Positions 3,887 through 62,808 of a stretch of 64,000 bases of DNA are shown in pieces. How positions within the stretch are numbered: position 1 is the stretch's first letter; the number at the start of each line of letters is the position of its first letter. The DNA is from Patescibacteria group bacterium. GTDB taxonomy: Bacteria; Patescibacteriota; Patescibacteriia; Patescibacteriales; UBA12465. Both the position numbers and the translations under genes were made by a program. Where the stretch lies: NCBI GenBank assembly GCA_041664445.1, contig JBAYKT010000004.1, positions 9,976 through 73,975 of the forward strand. The letters are read 5' to 3'. A model generated the notes under the pieces. It made no database searches. It was not told where the DNA came from and saw only the letters and a list, made by a program, of their open reading frames with translations.

Positions 3887-6523
3887 ATGGATAACTCTTT
3901 ATTTTATCAATTGAGCGTAGCCGCTGCTTTTAAAAAATTAGCGACTAAACAATCCGGTTTAGAGACATCGGAAGTCGAGAGCCGCTTAAAGACCCATGGT
4001 TTAAATAAACTGCCGCGTAAAAAAGCTTTGACTGGCCTAAGCCTGTTTTTGGGACAATTTAAAAATCCTTTAGTTTTTATTCTATTTGCCGCTTTAGCGA
4101 TTAGTTTTTTTGCGGGCCATAAAAGCGATTCTTTGATCATCTTTATTGTAATCATGGTCACTAATACGGTGGGATTTTTGCAAGAGTGGAAGGCTAATAA
4201 TGCCTTAGAGAAGCTGGGGCAAGCCGTAACGCATAAAGTAAGAGTTTGGCGCGATAATCAATTATCGATTATTAAAAGAGAATTTTTGGTTCCCGGAGAT
4301 ATTATTGAAATTGCGGCCGGCGACGTTATTCCGGCTGATGCTCGAATTTTTGAGGCCAAAGATCTTAAAGTTAATGAGGCCGCTTTAACCGGCGAATCAC
4401 TGGCGGTTGATAAATCAATTAGAGAATTGAAGACGGAAATCAGTTTGGCCGATAGGAAAAACATGGTTTATCAGGGAACAATTGTCGCCGATGGTTTTGG
4501 TAAAGCGCTCGTTACCGCTACCGGCCAAAATACCGAAATTGGCCAAATTGCGAAGTTAATTAAGGAAACTAGCGAGGGACTGACGCCGCTGCAAAAACAA
4601 ATAAATAATTTCGGCATTAAATTGGGTTTATTTTTAATTGCCGCTAATGTCGTTATTTTTTTAATTGGTATTTTAAGCGGTCGTGATATTTTTGAAATGT
4701 TTATGGTTTCGGTAGTAATTGTGGTCTCGGCTGTTCCTGAAGGGCTGATTCCAGCAATGGCTATTATTTTAGCGATTGGCATGCAGCACCTCGCCAAAAA
4801 ACAAGGCTTAGTCAGGCGCGCAATTGCCGCCGAAACCTTGGGTTCGGTTTCCGTTATTTGCGCTGATAAAACCGGAACCCTGACTCAGGGAGAAATGTTA
4901 GTCGACCGATTCATTGGTGCTAATGGTTTAGAAAAATTAGGCAAAGAAACTTTAGCTTTAAAAATTTCTGTGCTCTGCAATGACGGCTTGATAGAAAATC
5001 CCGGAGACGATTTATCAAAATTGAAAATTTCTGGAAACCCGACCGATAAAGCCCTGTTATTAGCCGGAGCCGGTCTTGGTTTATATCGTCAAGAATTGGA
5101 AAAGATAAATCCGCGTTTAGATGAAATATTATTTTCTTCAACTTCCAAGCTGATGGCCACTTTGAATAAATCGGCAGACGGCCAAGAAATAGTTTATATT
5201 AAGGGAGCCCCCGAAAAATTATTGGCCCAAGCTTCTAAAATTTACGTTGATGGTAAAGAAAAGAAGCTTTCCGCTAAAGATAAAAAAATACAAGCTGATA
5301 AAATTGCCGAGTTTACCGACACCGGCGCGCGGGTGATTGCCTTGGCTTATAAAAATAAAATAACTGGCACCCCCGGTCATTTAGAAGCTGCTGATTTAGA
5401 AGATTTAACTTTAGTGGGTTTCTTTTCACTTCGCGATCAGGTGCGAAGCGATGTTAAACAGGCTATTCAATCTTGCCGCGAGGCGGGGATTAGAGTGGTA
5501 ATAATTACCGGCGACAACGCGCGGACAGCAACCGCCATTGTCAAGGAAATTGGTCTGGAAATTAATAGCCATAATGTGGTTGACGGTGATGAGCTTGATA
5601 AGATGACGGACGACCAGCTGAAAAAACGTATCAGTGATATTCGGCTTTATGCTCGCGTTAGCCCGCATCATAAATTAAGAATCGTTAACGCTTTCCAGGA
5701 AATCGGCAAGACAGTAGCGATGACCGGCGATGGCATTAATGATTCTCCGGCGCTCAAGAAAGCGGATATTGGCGTAGCCATCGGTAGTGGCACGGATGTT
5801 GCCAAGGAAGCAGCCGATTTAGTGCTGCTAGATAATAGTTTTATGACGATTGTGGCCGCCGTTAAACAGGGGCGAATTACCTTTTTAAATATTAGAAAAG
5901 TTATTCTTTATTTATTCACTGATTGTTTTCAGGAGATGATTATTATCGGCGTTTCGGTAATTTTAGGCTGGCCATTGCCGATTTTGCCGGTTCAAGTTCT
6001 TTGGATTAAATTAATTGAAGACCCCTTGCCGGCTGCCAGTTTAGCTTTTGATGTTTCTGACGACAACGTGATGCACGAGCAGCCGCGCCATCGCGAGCAG
6101 CCGTTGCTTACTCCGGCTTTGCAAAAAATAATTGCTTTTTATGCCATTGTGATGGATTGTTTTGCGCTGGCAATTTTTTATTATTATTTTAAAGTTGTAG
6201 GAGATATCGTTTTGGCTCGTAGTGTGATGTTTGCCACTCTTGGCATGAGCACCATGTTTTATATCTATGCCGTCCGAGGTTTAAATACTTCAATTTTTAA
6301 GACCAAGCATTTCTCCAATAAGTTTTTAGTAGGCGCTACTTTTTTGGGAGTGGCGCTTATTGCCGTTTCCGTTTATTTGCCGGTTCTTAATCGCTTGTTA
6401 AATACTGTACCCTTAAGAATCAATGATTGGGCAATCATTTTAGTTTATGGCATTTTAACCATGTTTGTTTTTGAGCTTGGCAAATATATTTCCGGTTATC
6501 GCCGGGAAGTCAAAAAATTGTAA
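3887..6523 (+). CDS. Cation-transporting P-type ATPase, P2 (Ca2+-ATPase-like) type
   Basis: DKTGTLT phosphorylation site, TGDGINDSPALKKADIGVA hinge, TGES actuator motif (LTGESLAV). TM4 motif is PEGL, not CPC, and there is no N-terminal HMA domain. Confidence 0.9.
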   Translation: MDNSLFYQLSVAAAFKKLATKQSGLETSEVESRLKTHGLNKLPRKKALTGLSLFLGQFKNPLVFILFAALAISFFAGHKSDSLIIFIVIMVTNTVGFLQEWKANNALEKLGQAVTHKVRVWRDNQLSIIKREFLVPGDIIEIAAGDVIPADARIFEAKDLKVNEAALTGESLAVDKSIRELKTEISLADRKNMVYQGTIVADGFGKALVTATGQNTEIGQIAKLIKETSEGLTPLQKQINNFGIKLGLFLIAANVVIFLIGILSGRDIFEMFMVSVVIVVSAVPEGLIPAMAIILAIGMQHLAKKQGLVRRAIAAETLGSVSVICADKTGTLTQGEMLVDRFIGANGLEKLGKETLALKISVLCNDGLIENPGDDLSKLKISGNPTDKALLLAGAGLGLYRQELEKINPRLDEILFSSTSKLMATLNKSADGQEIVYIKGAPEKLLAQASKIYVDGKEKKLSAKDKKIQADKIAEFTDTGARVIALAYKNKITGTPGHLEAADLEDLTLVGFFSLRDQVRSDVKQAIQSCREAGIRVVIITGDNARTATAIVKEIGLEINSHNVVDGDELDKMTDDQLKKRISDIRLYARVSPHHKLRIVNAFQEIGKTVAMTGDGINDSPALKKADIGVAIGSGTDVAKEAADLVLLDNSFMTIVAAVKQGRITFLNIRKVILYLFTDCFQEMIIIGVSVILGWPLPILPVQVLWIKLIEDPLPAASLAFDVSDDNVMHEQPRHREQPLLTPALQKIIAFYAIVMDCFALAIFYYYFKVVGDIVLARSVMFATLGMSTMFYIYAVRGLNTSIFKTKHFSNKFLVGATFLGVALIAVSVYLPVLNRLLNTVPLRINDWAIILVYGILTMFVFELGKYISGYRREVKKL

Positions 6524-25306: not shown

Positions 25307-25639
25307 TTAGCCGAAGATGGCGACAGCAATTTTTGATTTCGGATGAATAATTTTACCCGGACTTTCTACAACTGTGCCGTTGAGACTGAAAGAGGGGAAA
25401 ACCCGATACTCGCTGTCAAATTCGACAACATTTACAGCCACTTTAGTGAGCTTCAGATTGGTTTCCAGGAAGTTAGTGACTCCCTGAGCAACTTTTTCTT
25501 TACTTTTGCCATTAATACTTGGCAAGTGGCCACGAATGGCGTCCATCACTTGTGCGGCTGCATTATCCGCAATTTCGTCTGCTAAAACCTTCATCATACC
25601 ATTTGCGGTATGAACATTTAAACCTTTTGCTTTGTTCAT
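25307..25639 (-). CDS. Hypothetical 110-aa protein
   Basis: Isolated minus-strand ORF with its own terminator and an AT-rich upstream region. No motif recognised. Confidence 0.55.
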   Translation of the reverse strand: MNKAKGLNVHTANGMMKVLADEIADNAAAQVMDAIRGHLPSINGKSKEKVAQGVTNFLETNLKLTKVAVNVVEFDSEYRVFPSFSLNGTVVESPGKIIHPKSKIAVAIFG

Positions 25640-25737: not shown

Positions 25738-26694
25738 ATGAAACTTGTGGTTGGATTTATTACTTATAACGATTCTAGCGCCAAATATTTAGGTGATTTT
25801 TTGCCTAGTTTAAGGGCCGCTTTGGCTTTTTTACCGCTTGAAGAAAGGCTAATTTTTGCCTTTGATAATAGTAGTCCAGATAACAATTTTAACCGCTTGT
25901 CGCTGGAATATTTTATTAAAGATAATCCTGAGGAATTAATCAGATTAACTAGAAATAAAAATCTCGGTTTTAGCCGCGCCTATAATTTTATGATTAGGCA
26001 GGCTAAAAAATTGCATGCCGATTATTTTTTAGCCATCAATCCGGACACCATTATGGAGCCAGATACTATTCAAAAATTATTGGCAAAAATCAGTAGCGAC
26101 CCGAAAATAGCCTCAGTCAGCCCGAAAATTTTGCGCTGGGATTTTGTTCGGCAAATCAAGACTAAACAGCTTGATTCTTGTGGTTTAGTGCTAAAATCTG
26201 GCTTAAGCTTTAGAGATTTGGGGCAGGGAGAGCTCGATGAGGGCCAGTATGACACCGCCTCCATTCTGGGGCCATCAGGTGCCGCCGCCCTGTATCGTCT
26301 GAGTGCTTTGGAAAAAATTAAGACTAATCACGACTATTTCGATTCCCGGTTTTTTATGTACAAAGAGGATTGCGATTTAGCTTATCGGCTGGAGAAAGCC
26401 GGTTTCAAATCGCGTTTAGTGGCCGAGGCTTTAGTCTATCATGATCGCACAGTTGGGTCTTTTGGCCAGGGATTTTGGGGGCGTTTTAAGGAAAGGCGCC
26501 AGCTAAGTCGACAGGCAAGAGCCTGGTCTTTTAAGAACCAACACCTTCTTTTTGTCAAACATTTTTGGCAAGAGAATCTGGTCAGCAAACTGCTAATTAT
26601 GTCTCGGATTATTGTTTTGTTTATTTTTTCGCTTATATTAGAACAATTTAACTTAAAAGAATATTTGTCGATTTGGCGCTCTTTCAAGGCTTGA
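25738..26694 (+). CDS. Family 2 glycosyltransferase
   Basis: VGFITYN.., FDNSSPD, LAINPD (DxD-type) and YKEDCDLAYR, typical of GT2 rhamnosyl/glycosyltransferases. C-terminal hydrophobic segment. Confidence 0.8.
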   Translation: MKLVVGFITYNDSSAKYLGDFLPSLRAALAFLPLEERLIFAFDNSSPDNNFNRLSLEYFIKDNPEELIRLTRNKNLGFSRAYNFMIRQAKKLHADYFLAINPDTIMEPDTIQKLLAKISSDPKIASVSPKILRWDFVRQIKTKQLDSCGLVLKSGLSFRDLGQGELDEGQYDTASILGPSGAAALYRLSALEKIKTNHDYFDSRFFMYKEDCDLAYRLEKAGFKSRLVAEALVYHDRTVGSFGQGFWGRFKERRQLSRQARAWSFKNQHLLFVKHFWQENLVSKLLIMSRIIVLFIFSLILEQFNLKEYLSIWRSFKA

Positions 26695-26719
26695 CTAATA
26701 TAAAATAATATGATAAATT
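26691..26719 (+). promoter_or_regulatory. Candidate promoter for 26776..27816 (TTGACT-17-TAAATT with TGn)
   Basis: TTGACT 26691-96 (overlaps the GT2 stop), TGa at 26711-13, TAAATT 26714-19. Confidence 0.4.
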
Positions 26720-26769
26720 AAATAAAGCTTTACTAAGCTGATACTTAAATAAATCTAAAAGCTTTATTT
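26720..26769 (+). promoter_or_regulatory. Perfect 12-bp inverted repeat in the 5' region of the sigma-r4/HARE-HTH gene
   Basis: AAATAAAGCTTT (26720-31) ... AAAGCTTTATTT (26758-69), 26-nt spacer, T-run to 26775, abutting ATG 26776. Could be a weak terminator for the GT2 gene or a 5'-UTR hairpin. Confidence 0.35.
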
Positions 26770-26775
26770 TTTTAT

Positions 26776-27816
26776 ATGGAAAATTTACTCGAAAAGATAA
26801 TTAAAGAAGAAAAATCCGAAGAACTCGGACGTCTAGACGCGATTAATATCGTTAACTCTTTGTTTTCTGAATTATTAGAAAGAGAGAGAGACGTGCTGAC
26901 CAGACGCTTTGGCCTTAAGGGTGATAAAAGCGAGACTTTGGAGAAAATTGGCGGCTTGCATAAACTAACTCGCGAAAGAGTTAGACAAATTGAAGCGGCC
27001 AGTATTCGAAAAATAAAGAAACTGGAGAGCTTAGAGGGTTATATTTCTGATCTTAAACAAGCCGTTCATAAACTGTTAGCTGAACACGGCGGTCTTATTA
27101 GACGTGATTATTTATTAGATATTTTGACGGTCATTGCTTTAGAGCTAAATTCCGAAAAATCAGGTCAGGCTGGCGACGATAAAATTCGTGAATCATATAA
27201 GAATCATTTTAATTTCTTGATTTCTAAGTTGATGGGCGATGATTTAGAACTGGTTAGCAATAATGACCGCTTTACCCCATCATTCAAGTTTAAAAATAAC
27301 GAAGTCACTCATTTGGAAGAATTGGCCGATGATTTATTAAATAAAGTTGACGGCTTAAAGAAAACCCTGAATACCGAGGAATTATTGGAAATTTTGAAGA
27401 AACTAGACGCTTATAATAAGCACCAAGAAAAGCTGCAGGATAAAATTGAAGGCCTAGATATCGAATCTGTCTTTAAGAGTCAAGTTTTCCCTGATAAAGC
27501 CGCTTTAATAAATGGTAATAAGGTTTTATACTCTTTAATGCAGGCCGTTAAGAACTTAGAACAGAATCGATATGGTGAATGGGGAATTGCTGATTGGCAA
27601 GAGATTAAGCCCAAAACCGTTAATGATAAGATTTACTTAATTTTAAAACATGAAGGCAAACCACTCCATTTTACTGAAATCGCCAATAAAATTAATGATA
27701 TAAAATTTGACAAAAAGAAAGCCAATGCCGCCACCGTTCATAACGAATTAATCCTTGATGGGCGCTATGTCCTAATCAGCCGCGGTACCTATGGCCTAAA
27801 GGAATGGCAGAAGTAA
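26776..27816 (+). CDS. Sigma-70 region 4 domain + C-terminal HARE-HTH domain protein
   Basis: N-terminal LLERERDVLTRRFGLKGDKSETLEKIGGLHKLTRERVRQIEAASIRKIKK is a near-canonical sigma70 region 4.2. C-terminal FTEIANKI...VHNELILDGRYVLISRGTYGLKEW resembles the HARE-HTH of the RNAP delta subunit. No region 2 is present. Confidence 0.7.
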   Translation: MENLLEKIIKEEKSEELGRLDAINIVNSLFSELLERERDVLTRRFGLKGDKSETLEKIGGLHKLTRERVRQIEAASIRKIKKLESLEGYISDLKQAVHKLLAEHGGLIRRDYLLDILTVIALELNSEKSGQAGDDKIRESYKNHFNFLISKLMGDDLELVSNNDRFTPSFKFKNNEVTHLEELADDLLNKVDGLKKTLNTEELLEILKKLDAYNKHQEKLQDKIEGLDIESVFKSQVFPDKAALINGNKVLYSLMQAVKNLEQNRYGEWGIADWQEIKPKTVNDKIYLILKHEGKPLHFTEIANKINDIKFDKKKANAATVHNELILDGRYVLISRGTYGLKEWQK

Positions 27817-27842
27817 AATCCCAAAACTAAACACTTTTTATA

Positions 27843-27880
27843 AGAGACCTAATCAAAGCTGATTAGGTTTCTTTTTTTTC
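27843..27880 (+). terminator. Terminator after 26776..27816
   Basis: 13-bp stem AGAGACCTAATCA / TGATTAGGTTTCT, loop AAGC, followed by TTTTTTTT. Confidence 0.75.
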
Positions 27881-27923
27881 TTAAAATATGATAAAATCTT
27901 AGTATCAAAAAGATAAACCGAAT

Positions 27924-29369
27924 ATGGATATCGTTATCAATACTGAGGGTATAGACAGATTTTTAAACCTGCCTCCGGACTTAATGTTTTGGGCTTTTTT
28001 TGCCAATTTCGGCTGGATAATAATTGGCATCTTTTTTATTTATGGAACCCTTCAGGTTTATTTATTATGGATACGTGATAAATGGTCAGAAACTCATAAA
28101 AATGTTCTACTAGCGGTTGATATTCCTAAGGCTAATGAGCAATCGCCAAAAGCGGTAGAGAATATGTTTACTTATTTGGCTGGCGCTCACGGTTCTATTA
28201 ATTTTTTTGAAAAATGGTTTGAAGGGAAGTATCAAAAATCTTTTAGCTATGAAATTGTTAGCTTGGAAGGCTATACGCAATTTTTGATTAGAACGCCAGC
28301 GGAATATAAAAATTTGATTGAGTCCTCGGTTTATTCTCAATATCCGGATGCTGAAATTTCGGTGGTCGATGATTATGTTGATTCTGTCCCGCAGCACTAT
28401 CCCGATGAAGAATATGATGTCTGGGGAACGGAATTTATGCAGGCCGGTCCTTGGGTGTACCCTATAAAAACTTATGAGGAGTTTGAGCATAAAATGGGAC
28501 CGAGCGAAACTCAGTTTAAAGATCCGATGGCTGCTTTAATGGATTTATGCGGTTCTTTGCGCCAGGGCGAGCAGCTTTGGATTCAATTTTTGGTAATTCC
28601 TATCGGTTTTGATTGGGTTAAAGAGGCGGAAAAAGAAATCGATAAAATTTTAGGGCGGAAACCAAAGTCTAAGCCAAGTTTAGCAATGCAGGGCGTTGAG
28701 GCTTTAGGCAACGCCAGTGAAATTTTGTATAGTATTTGGGGGGATGTTGAAACTAGTAAAAAGGAGGAAAAGCAAAAAACCATGATGGATTTGAATCCTT
28801 TGGAGCAGAAGAGAATCGAGGGTGTTCATAAAAAATTATCAAAGTTGTCTTTTGAGGCTAAAATTAGAGTGGTCTATGTCGCTAAAAAAGATGTGATGAA
28901 TAAAGCCAAGGTGGCTAATGGCATGGTTGGTTATATGAAACAATTTGCCGCTTTGGATTTAAATAATTTGAAACCGGATATTAAAAAAACTTTTACTAAA
29001 ACCGTTTATTTTCGCCAAGTGCCTCGTTTGAATTTAAAAAAGAACAAGATTTTTCACGCCTATACTTTGCGTTCCGATGGTCGCGGAATTAGCCCCGGCA
29101 TCTTTAACATTGAGGAACTGGCGACTTTGTGGCACTTTCCGGTGGAGGCTAATGTTAAGGCTTCGTTAGTTCAAAAAGCGCCGGGTCGAAAAGCGGATGC
29201 GCCGTCATCATTACCGCTCGCCTCGGAGCTAACTACCGCTGATGATAGTTTCTTGAAGACCGGAATTTTTTTAGAAAATAGAGAACAGCCGAATACTTAC
29301 TCGGAAAAACCTTCGTCATCCTTGGAAGAGGACGGCTCGACACCCCCGGATAATTTACCTTTTGTTTAA
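27924..29369 (+). CDS. Conserved-looking membrane-anchored hypothetical protein
   Basis: N-terminal TM pair (LMFWAFFANFGWIIIGIFFIYGTLQVYLLWI) followed by a ~400-aa soluble region (LLAVDIPKANEQSPKAVENMF ... ELATLWHFP). No assignable domain. Confidence 0.7.
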   Translation: MDIVINTEGIDRFLNLPPDLMFWAFFANFGWIIIGIFFIYGTLQVYLLWIRDKWSETHKNVLLAVDIPKANEQSPKAVENMFTYLAGAHGSINFFEKWFEGKYQKSFSYEIVSLEGYTQFLIRTPAEYKNLIESSVYSQYPDAEISVVDDYVDSVPQHYPDEEYDVWGTEFMQAGPWVYPIKTYEEFEHKMGPSETQFKDPMAALMDLCGSLRQGEQLWIQFLVIPIGFDWVKEAEKEIDKILGRKPKSKPSLAMQGVEALGNASEILYSIWGDVETSKKEEKQKTMMDLNPLEQKRIEGVHKKLSKLSFEAKIRVVYVAKKDVMNKAKVANGMVGYMKQFAALDLNNLKPDIKKTFTKTVYFRQVPRLNLKKNKIFHAYTLRSDGRGISPGIFNIEELATLWHFPVEANVKASLVQKAPGRKADAPSSLPLASELTTADDSFLKTGIFLENREQPNTYSEKPSSSLEEDGSTPPDNLPFV

Positions 29370-60269: not shown

Positions 60270-61124
60270 ATGAAAAAAATCATCGTAATTTTTGTATTTT
60301 TAGCTGCCATAAATTTGGCCGCTTTCGCTCAGATTAAGAATTTAGTTGCCACTGATGACAGTTCTTTGGTCGTTAATAATGTCTATGTTGGGCTTCTGAA
60401 TGCCAGCACCTTTGATTCTGATTTGAATGTTGAGCATAGCTATGATTTCCGCATTGGTGGTAATTTAACCTGGCAACTTTCTTCTTGGATGAAGGCTAAA
60501 GCTTTAGTCGTTTACGACCGGGCAAATGGAGAGGATAAGAATATAAATTTTTTCTCTCTCAAGCTTCATTCTCGAAATGAAAAGATGGGTTTAGAGTTTG
60601 GCCGCATGCCGACTCTATCCACGGAAATGATGCCAATCCCGCTTAGTCCCGGAGGACATTTTAGTACTTGGGCTGAAAGCCAAATTATTGGGCCGGCTAT
60701 CGGCGCTAAAACAACTTTCAAAATTAAAGAAAGTTTGTTTGGTTTTGGGATTGCCAGGCGTGGTGATAAACCTGAATACCATTTAAAATTGGAATCTGGA
60801 GTAATCTCTTCTGCCGCTTCTTATAGCACCGCCACCAAGATGTTTGAATCTGTTTTTTCTTTCAAGCCGGATTATGTCTACAGCGTTTCTGTATTTCAAA
60901 ATGTCGGTTCCTCTAATCTTTTAGCTAATTATACTAGTGTGCCTATTGGCCATAATTTGGAAGTCTGTATAGACGCCGGTTATTGTTTTGAAGAGCAAAA
61001 ATTTCGGAAACTGGAATTTGGAGTTATTAAAACTTTTCAAGCTAATTGGCTCAAAGGGCTACTGTATGTTTGCTATACGCAAGAGGATAACAGATTGAAT
61101 GCTTTTTTATTGTTTCATATTTAA
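60270..61124 (+). CDS. Secreted beta-rich protein with outer-membrane-beta-barrel-like sequence pattern
   Basis: Signal peptide MKKIIVIFVFLAAINLAAFA/Q. About 12 segments of strictly alternating hydrophobic/polar residues (YDFRIGGNLTWQL, LFGFGIARR, YVYSVSVFQ, LEVCIDAGYCFE, KLEFGVIKTFQ). Confidence 0.6.
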   Translation: MKKIIVIFVFLAAINLAAFAQIKNLVATDDSSLVVNNVYVGLLNASTFDSDLNVEHSYDFRIGGNLTWQLSSWMKAKALVVYDRANGEDKNINFFSLKLHSRNEKMGLEFGRMPTLSTEMMPIPLSPGGHFSTWAESQIIGPAIGAKTTFKIKESLFGFGIARRGDKPEYHLKLESGVISSAASYSTATKMFESVFSFKPDYVYSVSVFQNVGSSNLLANYTSVPIGHNLEVCIDAGYCFEEQKFRKLEFGVIKTFQANWLKGLLYVCYTQEDNRLNAFLLFHI

Positions 61125-61205: not shown

Positions 61206-61272
61206 TTCCTGAATTATAAAATTCAAATTTTTTAATATTCTTTAACAATTTAATAACTTAAAACCATTGATT

Positions 61273-62808
61273 ATGAATCAGACAGACAAGTTTCAAGCAG
61301 TTAGAAGGTGCGATGATTTTTTCGCAGCTCAGAGACAGCGCTACTTTGCCGTTAGCTTTGATGACGTTAGATTATTTACTGCTTATTCGGAAATTCTTCC
61401 AACGCAGACTAGTTTAAAGTCTAAATTCTCTCGCAATGTTGGGCTCAATATCCCAATCATCAGTTCACCAATGGACACGGTGACGGAATATAAAATGGCT
61501 ATTGCGATTGCCATGGATGGTGGTTTGGGGATAATTCATAGAGGATTAGACCCGGTAACACAGGCCGCCCACGTTGCTAAGGTAAAACATCGCTTAAATG
61601 CCTTTTTACCAGATCCAATCTGCATTAAGCAGAATGATAAGGTGACTGACATTTTGCGAATGAGAGAAATTAAAGATTATGGCTTTTCATCTTTTCCAGT
61701 AATGGATAATGATGGACGAATAATTGGCATTGTAACCAGCAATGATTTCGATTTTTGCCATGATCAAGAAAATTCTTTGATTTCCGACATCATGTCTTCA
61801 CGTCTAATCAGCGCTTTACCAGGAACAAATGTTACCGACGCTTATTCACTGATGCGTAAGCATCACAAAAAAATTCTGCCGATTTTTGATGATGACCGGG
61901 ATCTTAAAGGTATTTATACCTGGACTGATGTTAAAAGGATAATGACCAACAATGCGGAAGGTTATAATCTTGATAAAAATGGCAGTTTATTTGTCGGTGC
62001 CGCTATCGGAGTTTCTCCTGAAGACAGGGAGCGGGCTGAGTTATTGGCGCAGAAAGGAGTTGATGTTTTGGTAATTGATACCGCTCACGGCAATTCGCTG
62101 GGTGTGATAGAGATGCTTAAGTATTTAAAAAAAACTTATCCAAACATCGATGTCGTAGCCGGCAATATTTCCGAAGGAGAGGCCGCTAAAAGATTAGCAG
62201 ATGCTGGTGCCGATGGTTTGCGGATTGGTCAGGGTCCTGGTTCTATTTGTACGACCAGAATCACGGCTGGTATCGGGCATCCTCAGGTTTCGGCAATTTA
62301 CGAATGCGAAAAAGCAATTCGCGGTTCCGGAGTTCCTATTTGTGCTGACGGTGGCATCAGATATTCTGGCGACGTCGCAGTTGCTATGGGCGCGGGAGCT
62401 GACAGTGTCATGCTTGGCAATTTGTTGGCTGGAACCACAGAGTCTCCTGGCGATGTTTTCTTTAAGAATGGCAAAGCGGTAAAGGTTTATCGCGGCATGG
62501 GTTCCTTGGAGGCAATGAAGGAACATAAAACTTCGCGTCAACGTTATGGTCAGATTGAAGGTGGCACCGATAAATTGGTTCCTGAAGGAGTTTCTGGTGA
62601 AGTATTGTTCAAGGGGGAAGTTCATAACGTTCTTCATCAACTGCTCGGCGGCTTGCGTGCTGGGTTAGGCTACTTAGGCGTAAAAGAAGTTAGCTTTTTT
62701 AAAGAAATAGCTGATTTCCATTTAGTCTCTAATTCAGGCATGCAGGAGTCGCATCCGCATGACTTGTTTTCTATGAATGAGGCTCCTAATTATCGGAGCC
62801 CGCGTTAG
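61273..62808 (+). CDS. guaB: IMP dehydrogenase (with CBS pair)
   Basis: SFDDVRL, IPIISSPMDTVTE, GGLGIIH, CBS region, GIGPGSICTTR catalytic loop, GGIRYSGD, YRGMGS. ATG 61273 preferred over TTG 61267. Confidence 0.9.
   Translation: MNQTDKFQAVRRCDDFFAAQRQRYFAVSFDDVRLFTAYSEILPTQTSLKSKFSRNVGLNIPIISSPMDTVTEYKMAIAIAMDGGLGIIHRGLDPVTQAAHVAKVKHRLNAFLPDPICIKQNDKVTDILRMREIKDYGFSSFPVMDNDGRIIGIVTSNDFDFCHDQENSLISDIMSSRLISALPGTNVTDAYSLMRKHHKKILPIFDDDRDLKGIYTWTDVKRIMTNNAEGYNLDKNGSLFVGAAIGVSPEDRERAELLAQKGVDVLVIDTAHGNSLGVIEMLKYLKKTYPNIDVVAGNISEGEAAKRLADAGADGLRIGQGPGSICTTRITAGIGHPQVSAIYECEKAIRGSGVPICADGGIRYSGDVAVAMGAGADSVMLGNLLAGTTESPGDVFFKNGKAVKVYRGMGSLEAMKEHKTSRQRYGQIEGGTDKLVPEGVSGEVLFKGEVHNVLHQLLGGLRAGLGYLGVKEVSFFKEIADFHLVSNSGMQESHPHDLFSMNEAPNYRSPR

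Follow-up and report, generated by a model that had tools for sequence, protein, structure and literature searches.

A gene in a 64-kb stretch of DNA from a Patescibacteria group bacterium (contig JBAYKT010000004.1; the whole stretch of 64,000 nucleotides is referred to here as the window) encodes a 346-residue protein in which domain 4 of a sigma-70 factor is joined to a tandem array of predicted winged helices, the last of them of the HARE-HTH type. We call it the sigma-4/HARE protein and propose, with a probability of roughly 0.45, that it is a putative transcription factor which, by mimicking domain 4 of sigma, binds DNA sequence-specifically at sites of the -35 type. Both its binding to -35-like sites and its effect on RNA polymerase (RNAP) are features that we infer from sequence. 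The gene and the domains that it encodes are arranged as follows.

26776-27816, + strand: coding sequence of the sigma-4/HARE protein, 346 amino acids from an ATG start, comprising sigma-4 and three winged-helix domains
26839-27021, + strand: sigma domain 4 (regions 4.1 and 4.2), residues 22-82; basic, isoelectric point (pI) about 10; Pfam PF04545
27031-27300, + strand: D2, winged-helix-like domain, residues 86-175; acidic, the least conserved; AlphaFold2 and hhalign
27301-27600, + strand: D3, winged-helix-like domain with a helical insertion, residues 176-275; acidic; AlphaFold2 and hhalign
27601-27813, + strand: D4, HARE-HTH winged helix, residues 276-346; basic, the most conserved domain; Pfam PF05066

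The two ends of the protein are identified by profile searches. Sigma70_r4 matches residues 31-82 with an E-value of 2.8e-10 (40 bits against a Pfam cut-off of 24.1), and HARE-HTH (PF05066) matches residues 281-344 with an E-value of 2.6e-7 (31.3 bits against a gathering score of 25.9), bearing out an earlier note on this DNA that had placed a sigma70 region 4 at residues ~30-80 and a HARE-HTH fold in the last ~65 residues. The NCBIfam models RpoD, RpoS and MzaA align to the protein only through their last ~60-75 positions, which correspond to region 4, and the matches in PDB sequences are all to region 4 of RpoS, SigA or RpoD, with E-values down to 9.5e-11. The model of the RNAP delta subunit, TIGR04567, scores 39.5 bits, just below its cut-off of 42. 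The Pfam scan found neither Sigma70_r2 nor Sigma70_r3 in the protein; these two families and RNA_pol_A_CTD were absent from all 80 sequences scanned, namely the window protein and 79 relatives, and a HARE-HTH match was present in 77 of the 79 full-length relatives. Because region 2 is missing, as the same note had pointed out in setting aside a conventional sigma function, the protein is not a sigma factor. No second sigma-like open reading frame (ORF), paralogue or full sigma gene lies within the window.

Aligned by Foldseek and HMMER, the sigma-4 domain shows 31-48% identity to its region 4 counterpart in sigma factors of groups 1 and 2. In Foldseek it matches sigma-4 structures, including that of sigma-4 on -35 DNA (1ku7), with root-mean-square deviations of 1-3 Å, and when the whole model is used as the query, sigma-4 structures and delta subunits are the sole matches. 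The best PDB sequence match of D4 is the N-terminal domain of the Bacillus subtilis delta subunit (2krc; E 2.7e-4).

The segment between the two ends had been read as a helical linker of about 200 residues, a description that we revise here. An AlphaFold2 model, built from an alignment of 137 sequences, is compact and confident, with a mean predicted local distance difference test score (pLDDT) of 93.9 and a predicted template modelling score (pTM) of 0.89. An N-terminal helix (residues 2-18) is followed by sigma-4 (residues 22-81), by two helix-strand-helix-helix-strand-strand units (residues 86-172 and 178-271) and by the HARE-HTH domain (residues 282-341). The secondary structure of D2 runs H-E-H-H-E-E with pLDDT values above 90 save in one loop, the values in D3 being mostly above 90 too, and a separate model of residues 86-275 gives the same two-domain picture (pLDDT 93.2). 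Relatives of the protein carry a further basic winged helix of about 60 residues after the HARE domain, which we call D5. When the family alignment was cut into domains and the domain profiles were compared pairwise with hhalign, D2, D3, D4 and D5 proved to be mutually related, with E-values of 1.6e-5 to 1.3e-7 and probabilities of 79-94%: D2 matches D3 (E 1.6e-5) and the C-terminal D5 of the relatives (E 2.9e-6), and D3 matches D4 (E 1.3e-7) and D5 (E 2.5e-7), D2 and D4 being the sole pair without direct similarity. A Foldseek search of the PDB with the D2-D3 model returned nothing significant (best E 0.8), the weak top matches being tandem winged-helix proteins. We conclude from the predicted structure and the profile comparisons that residues 86-275 are two diverged, alpha/beta, HARE-like winged helices, and that the whole protein is best described as sigma-4 followed by a tandem winged-helix array.

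D5 is present in 134 of the 137 aligned sequences and absent from the window protein, P0121 and P0135. The window protein stops 2 residues past its HARE domain, and a terminator follows the stop codon. The distribution in the alignment indicates that this fourth winged helix has been lost in the Falkowbacteria lineage, in which D2 and D3 are longer than in relatives.

Conservation and charge are distributed along the protein in a distinctive way, as the following values for the family show.

sigma-4: median pI 9.9, column conservation 0.53
D2: median pI 5.4, column conservation 0.32
D3: median pI 5.9, column conservation 0.35
D4 (HARE): median pI 9.6, column conservation 0.68
D5: median pI 9.7, column conservation 0.53

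Sigma-4, D4 and D5 are thus basic (median pI 9.6-9.9), and D2 and D3 are acidic. Among 137 family representatives, whose overall identity is only 29-62%, residues T65, R66, E67, R68, R70 and Q71 of the sigma-4 recognition helix are invariant or at least 90% conserved, as are residues in the HARE domain, in its third helix and its wing, among them T320, H322, N323, E324, L325, G335, R336, G337 and Y339. The conserved motif of the sigma-4 helix-turn-helix is T-R-E-R-x-R-Q, and its residues align with T583, R584, E585, R586, R588 and Q589 of Escherichia coli sigma70, which we take to be the -35 contacts of that factor. The alignment used residues 547-600 of sigma70, numbered in agreement with the known R584, E585, R588 and Q589. 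Binding to -35-like DNA, which had been raised as one possible activity of the protein, is therefore well motivated, given that the equivalents of the -35 contacts are invariant or nearly so. Selection on the gene is severe: comparison with the two closest loci gives ratios of non-synonymous to synonymous substitution (dN/dS) of 0.008 and 0.011, at dS values of 0.7-1.3, the lowest beside five neighbouring genes (0.022-0.064).

We favour DNA binding because the residues that would read the -35 element are invariant, because sigma-4, D4 and D5 are basic, and because the gene is under extreme purifying selection and has a strong promoter. In the mechanism that we envisage, sigma-4 would be the main DNA-reading head, recognising a -35-like TTGACA or TTGACT hexamer as sigma-A does. 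The basic D4 would touch adjacent DNA, as would the second basic winged helix, D5, in most relatives, and the acidic D2 and D3 would form a rigid scaffold or a surface for protein contacts. Seated on -35 elements, the protein could act either against the sigma-A holoenzyme, as a competitor, or together with it at the promoters that contain them. Among its targets may be its own promoter, as well as the promoter of the operon which it heads in most Parcubacteria, consisting of the sigma-4/HARE gene, a gene for a DUF8128 membrane protein and a gene for a VirD4-like ATPase.

The protein belongs to a large family. A word-indexed search yielded at least 3178 homologues, the best 120 of which are 71-100% identical to the window protein, 337-362 amino acids long and of the same architecture. 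An exhaustive search of representatives at 50% identity gave 234 clusters with E < 1e-30, more than 100 clusters at 50% identity being matched over their full length in the order sigma-4, D2, D3, HARE, and with a profile as the query no fewer than 7538 clusters at 90% identity scored E < 1e-10. The named sources are Falkowbacteria, Uhrbacteria, Nomurabacteria, Azambacteria, Niyogibacteria, Komeilibacteria, Giovannonibacteria and "Parcubacteria/Patescibacteria group"; no Saccharibacteria or Microgenomates were seen among the source names of the matches, and as far as these names show the family is confined to Parcubacteria-type Patescibacteria. The gene in the window is ~98% identical to that in a metagenome-assembled genome of Ca. 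Falkowbacteria, CP066698.1, and the matches listed from a scan of genome contigs with the single protein are close Falkowbacteria relatives only. When viral contigs were searched nearly all matches were ordinary sigma factors, so we do not regard this as a phage family. Members are named "sigma factor-like helix-turn-helix DNA-binding protein" by NCBI/PGAP, "DNA-directed RNA polymerase delta subunit" by JGI and "HTH HARE-type domain-containing protein" in UniRef.

One cluster bears on function. P0222, of 800 amino acids, is a nearly full-length RpoD/SigA-type sigma factor (regions 2, 3 and 4) fused in frame to the complete module. It occurs on five contigs from independent samples (for example L017 6001-8403 and L018 4214-6616), flanked by genes for ParB and PNPase and with neither DUF8128 nor the VirD4-like ATPase alongside. 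Through this fusion the module is tied in function to the sigma/RNAP apparatus. A further protein from the exhaustive search, P0262 (589 amino acids), consists of about seven tandem sigma region-4-like units ('FEQIQNSSLTDREKDILFRRYGLNGYEKQT...') and has no other recognisable domains.

The gene is bounded by transcription signals of its own, which together with the promoter of the next gene are as follows.

26691-26719, + strand: promoter of the sigma-4/HARE gene, from a consensus scan (-35 TTGACT at 26691-26696, 17-nt spacer, TG at 26711-26712, -10 TAAATT at 26714-26719)
26720-26769, + strand: perfect inverted repeat of 12 bp, its arms at 26720-26731 and 26758-26769 enclosing a 26-nt loop; probably without function
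27842-27881, + strand: intrinsic terminator, a 14-bp stem with a 4-nt loop (hairpin 27842-27873) and then a T-run
27889-27897, + strand: extended -10 promoter of the DUF8128 gene, TGATAAAAT, from a scan for extended -10 elements

The promoter and the strong terminator that the earlier note had described both stand up well. In 13 Falkowbacteria-type loci a 25-nt promoter core, TTGACTAATATAAAATAAT(A/G)TGATA, is near-invariant, spacer included, unlike the flanking intergenic DNA of the same loci, which cannot be aligned; and in at least 18 of 20 distant loci a TTGAC box with an extended -10 element (TGnTAnnnT) lies upstream of the orthologue. The terminator hairpin has a predicted energy of -17.6 kcal/mol (z = -5.4) and is retained through compensatory changes in 13 of 13 related loci. 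The promoter of the DUF8128 gene, which is without a -35 element, is likewise conserved in related loci as the motif AAAATATG(A/C/T)TAAAAT.

The inverted repeat, described in the same note as abutting the start codon, does exist, its right arm ending 6 nt short of the ATG, but it fails as a regulatory element. It is kept only in two 98%-identical loci, exactly in L011 and at 11 of 12 positions in L001, and is absent from relatives more distant than these; first-order Markov simulations lead one to expect about one such repeat per window by chance; and its RNA fold is no better than that of shuffles (z = -0.68). A role as operator or attenuator is accordingly unsupported. The TTGAC boxes that are duplicated in front of certain orthologues were also considered as operators and rejected, as they occur in 4 of 20 loci, about the chance rate. 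An Rfam search of the whole 64-kb window found no family at gathering score, tRNAs, rRNA and riboswitches included, and so there is no sign of a riboswitch in the 5' untranslated region. The start codon is preceded by a T-rich tract (TATTTTTTTATATG; 26762-26778), conserved at the orthologous positions in L001-L014, and no purine run resembling a Shine-Dalgarno sequence occurs before it, in the window (26762-26778) or in L001-L014.

The promoters of this genome make use of canonical TTGAC -35 elements, accompanied by -10 boxes that are either TATAAT-like or extended. About 12 intergenic TTGAC sites are found in the window, several with good -10 hexamers, which disposes of the notion that -35 elements are rare here, and since promoters with a TTGAC -35 are common in the genome, target sites for a protein of the proposed specificity exist. 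The full form TTGACT-N15-TGnTAnnnT is seen at three promoters, at 26691, 60192 and 61177, which stand before the sigma-4/HARE gene, an unknown ORF (60270-61124) and the gene for IMP dehydrogenase (61267-62808), respectively.

The gene order in Falkowbacteria is PBP2, Mur ligase, RmlD, RmlA, GT2, sigma-4/HARE, a 481-residue membrane protein, GT1 and DUF4012, and it is syntenic in 12 loci. The envelope-glycan island in which the gene had been said to sit is therefore real as far as its immediate neighbours go, but it is specific to Falkowbacteria: the glycan genes are not conserved beside the orthologues in distant Parcubacteria, unlike the gene downstream. The conserved partner is this downstream gene, which encodes a DUF8128 protein and is usually accompanied by one for an orphan VirD4-like ATPase. 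In the window it is located as follows.

27924-29369, + strand: membrane protein of the DUF8128 family (PF26449), 481 amino acids, the conserved neighbour

Our observations on DUF8128 cover this gene and the loci L015, L016, L019-L034, L037, L182 and L183. Across its full length the 481-residue protein shares 37-39% identity with its DUF8128 counterparts in distant, Nomurabacteria-type loci (E 2e-97 and 3e-114), and PF26449 is the family on record for the orthologous gene in L183. The gene lies directly 3' of the sigma-4/HARE orthologue in all Falkowbacteria loci and in ~18 of the 19 distant full-length loci with room for it. In at least 11 loci it is followed by a gene for a soluble VirD4/TraD/HerA-like ATPase, which matches TraD, VirD4, CedD and HerA models; no such ATPase is encoded within the 64-kb window of the Falkowbacteria lineage. 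In several lineages the genes overlap or lie 8-20 nt apart, from which we conclude that in these they form one operon. In L030 (7154-9793) DUF8128 and the ATPase are a single ORF of 880 amino acids, which suggests that in other loci the two are the halves of a split motor resembling a coupling protein. SecD and SecF are encoded upstream of the orthologue in 6 loci, and SecF alone is visible in 3 more.

DUF8128 has an N-terminal transmembrane segment and a domain of about 400 residues predicted by the positive-inside rule to be cytoplasmic, and it carries the motif 'ELATLWHFP' and a conserved C-terminal 'PPxNLP' peptide. Its profile matched nothing in the PDB, and NCBIfam and PADLOC gave no matches. 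Directly upstream of the orthologue's promoter in L023 (~5850-5930) there is a tRNA-like sequence, which illustrates that the upstream context varies while the downstream DUF8128 gene is fixed. Between RmlA and GT2 in the window there is an ORF of 110 amino acids (25307-25639, - strand) with no Pfam match; its only detected counterparts are those of L001 and L011, the two closest relatives, at 65-76% identity, far below that of its neighbours. A coupling of the loss of D5 to the loss of the adjoining ATPase was considered and rejected, as P0135 is without D5 and has both DUF8128 and the ATPase.

Several of these observations weigh against a -35-reading transcription factor. The sole strongly conserved partner of the gene is DUF8128, usually with the VirD4-like ATPase behind it, and no RNAP gene. 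Sigma-4 could instead be a protein-binding module, for the beta-flap for example, and the conservation of residues of the fold core cannot separate a DNA-binding role from a protein-binding one. The fusion to a sigma factor is known from the single cluster P0222, and the second sigma-4 of that protein has an altered recognition helix, TRQRIQQ against TRERVRQ, so -35-type specificity is not universal in the family.

The linkage to DUF8128 and the ATPase is what lends weight to a second reading, in which the sigma-4/HARE protein is a DNA-recognition adaptor that loads a membrane DNA-translocase onto specific DNA, DUF8128 in the membrane and the soluble VirD4/TraD-like ATPase making up a split motor of the coupling-protein type. 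The constancy of DUF8128 across lineages, the ATPase next to it, the implied operons, the fusion in L030 and the matches of the ATPase to TraD, VirD4, CedD and HerA models are all as such an adaptor would have it. A survey of type IV secretion in the Candidate Phyla Radiation (CPR) counted 5,713 VirD4 homologues in 2,918 CPR genomes, 148 of them near virB4 (10.1101/2025.01.22.634366); most are thus not near virB4, and exaptation to other functions is put forward by the authors as a possibility (10.1101/2025.01.22.634366), which would again suit an adaptor. We regard this role as a serious alternative, less likely than the -35-reading transcription factor. In Falkowbacteria the sigma-4/HARE gene is set apart from that for DUF8128 by a conserved terminator and by a second promoter, and the ATPase is not encoded within the window; the lineage with the sigma-A fusion has neither DUF8128 nor the ATPase beside the gene; part of the synteny may be ancestral gene order, as SecD and SecF are conserved upstream as well; and an adaptor leaves unexplained why precisely those sigma-4 residues that read the -35 element should be invariant.

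The transcription-factor and adaptor readings are mutually compatible, and the linkage to DUF8128 and the ATPase is too consistent to be ignored. The two might be combined in a Parcubacteria-specific machine of sigma-4/HARE, DUF8128 and the orphan VirD4-like ATPase, in which a promoter-type reader derived from sigma would direct a membrane-anchored translocase of DNA or another substrate; we think this unlikely as it stands. Such a machine might serve the acquisition of DNA or nucleotides, or the handling of the chromosome, in these ultrasmall, auxotrophic cells. Another possibility is that transcription is coupled to translocation through sequestration of the sigma-4/HARE factor by the motor.

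The sigma-4/HARE protein may be more limited in its reach, acting through its sigma-4-type helix-turn-helix as an autoregulated repressor or activator of its own operon, with no genome-wide role. Its gene comes first in the operon, behind a promoter of its own which in nearly every lineage contains a perfect TTGAC -35, and the invariance of the promoter spacer among the 13 Falkowbacteria loci could reflect such control. Local regulators, however, rarely evolve more slowly than every neighbour, as this gene does with its dN/dS of 0.01, and invariant recognition helices across a whole superphylum are rare among them. In Falkowbacteria, moreover, the gene is transcriptionally separated from DUF8128, and the downstream promoter has no -35 element to be read. 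We judge a purely local role distinctly improbable.

We take much the same sceptical view of a role as an accessory subunit of RNAP, in which sigma-4 would sit on the beta-flap tip and HARE on the beta' shelf/jaw, so tethering or recycling the enzyme. The best PDB relatives of D4 are indeed delta N-terminal domains, the delta model TIGR04567 falls narrowly short of its cut-off, JGI labels relatives of the protein delta subunits, the sigma-A fusion exists, and the flap tip is the binding site of sigma-4 in genuine sigma factors, examples being the chimeras found by Foldseek. The beta' shelf/jaw, where the delta N-terminal domain binds, lies across RNAP from the flap and the -35 element to which sigma-4 binds. 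A compact protein of 346 residues (pTM 0.89) would be unlikely to span both sites. The basic D4 corresponds to an acidic segment in delta, and action in the manner of delta, to which the earlier note had likened the C-terminal domain, is unlikely because the acidic tail, the part that bears delta's activity, is missing.

That the gene is the remnant of a disrupted full-length sigma gene, a point that the earlier note had wished to see checked, or a chance ORF has next to no probability: nothing but the absence of regions 2 and 3 suggests it, and it is refuted by the size of the family (at least 3178 homologues, the best 120 of them of conserved length and architecture, and 234 clusters at 50% identity with E < 1e-30), by the constraint on the sequence (dN/dS 0.008-0.011), and by the conserved promoter and terminator of the gene itself, the upstream gene being an intact GT2.

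Patescibacteria make up a large share of bacterial diversity, and their transcription apparatus has hardly been studied. In the literature we found no study of the sigma-4/HARE family, nor anything relevant on DUF8128, on HARE-HTH in CPR bacteria or on the pairing of HARE-HTH with Sigma70_r4. The family itself is already annotated, in generic terms, in the databases; what is new is the tandem winged-helix anatomy, the spread throughout Parcubacteria, the very strong constraint, the lineage-specific loss of D5 and the conserved operon with a split orphan VirD4-like ATPase. The family keeps an intact -35-reading head of the sigma-A kind without the rest of sigma, in a slowly evolving protein with a strong promoter. 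Should this head bind -35 elements, the housekeeping holoenzyme would have in the protein a general competitor or partner, and we know of no such regulatory principle in model bacteria. The fixed linkage to DUF8128 and the orphan ATPase offers in addition a concrete starting point, open to test, for the coupling-protein homologues, thousands of them in CPR bacteria, that have no tie to a type IV secretion system.

Comparison with known systems places the protein among, but apart from, four groups. Domain 4 of the group-1 and group-2 sigma-70 factors (RpoD/SigA and RpoS) has the same fold and the same T-R-E-R-x-R-Q helix-turn-helix. The sigma-4/HARE protein differs in having neither region 2, responsible for core binding, -10 recognition and melting, nor region 3, so that it cannot direct initiation, and in the order of its domains: winged helices come after sigma-4 here, whereas in sigma factors region 4 ends the protein. 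With the RNAP delta subunit (RpoE) of Bacillota (TIGR04567; 2krc, 6zca, 7f75) it has in common a HARE-type winged helix. In the sigma-4/HARE protein, however, this domain is C-terminal and net basic, where the aligned N-terminal segment of delta is net acidic; three domains precede it and no acidic tail follows. Where delta has a long, acidic, disordered C-terminal region, the relatives carry the basic winged helix D5. That region of delta has a net charge of -47 and carries the activity of the subunit (PMC7749165). Judged by its sequence, the sigma-4/HARE protein fails the definition of delta.

A third likeness is to the DNA-directing modules of related pumps, such as the gamma domain of FtsK, the winged helix in TraB of Streptomyces, and TraM, which acts with TraD. 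In pumps of the FtsK/HerA type, too, helix-turn-helix or winged-helix DNA modules are genetically coupled to a membrane-anchored ATPase of the VirD4/FtsK superfamily. Here the module is a separate protein that contains sigma-4, and its putative interaction with the motor is suggested by gene order.

The closest precedent in domain composition is a set of bacterial proteins that Aravind and Iyer are said to have described on computational grounds in 2012, in which HARE-HTH is combined with a sigma-factor helix-turn-helix and the helix-hairpin-helix of the C-terminal domain of RNAP alpha, and which they reportedly predicted to be delta-like inhibitors of promoter binding; the Pfam text for PF05066 presumably describes the same combination of HARE-HTH and sigma-type helix-turn-helix. 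As in those fusions, a sigma-type helix-turn-helix and HARE-HTH occur here in one polypeptide that is not a sigma factor. Measured against that definition, the present family departs from them in having neither the alpha C-terminal domain nor a sigma region-3 helix-turn-helix in the 80 sequences, and in its three to four HARE-like winged helices in tandem, its Parcubacteria-type hosts and its linkage to DUF8128 and the VirD4-like ATPase.

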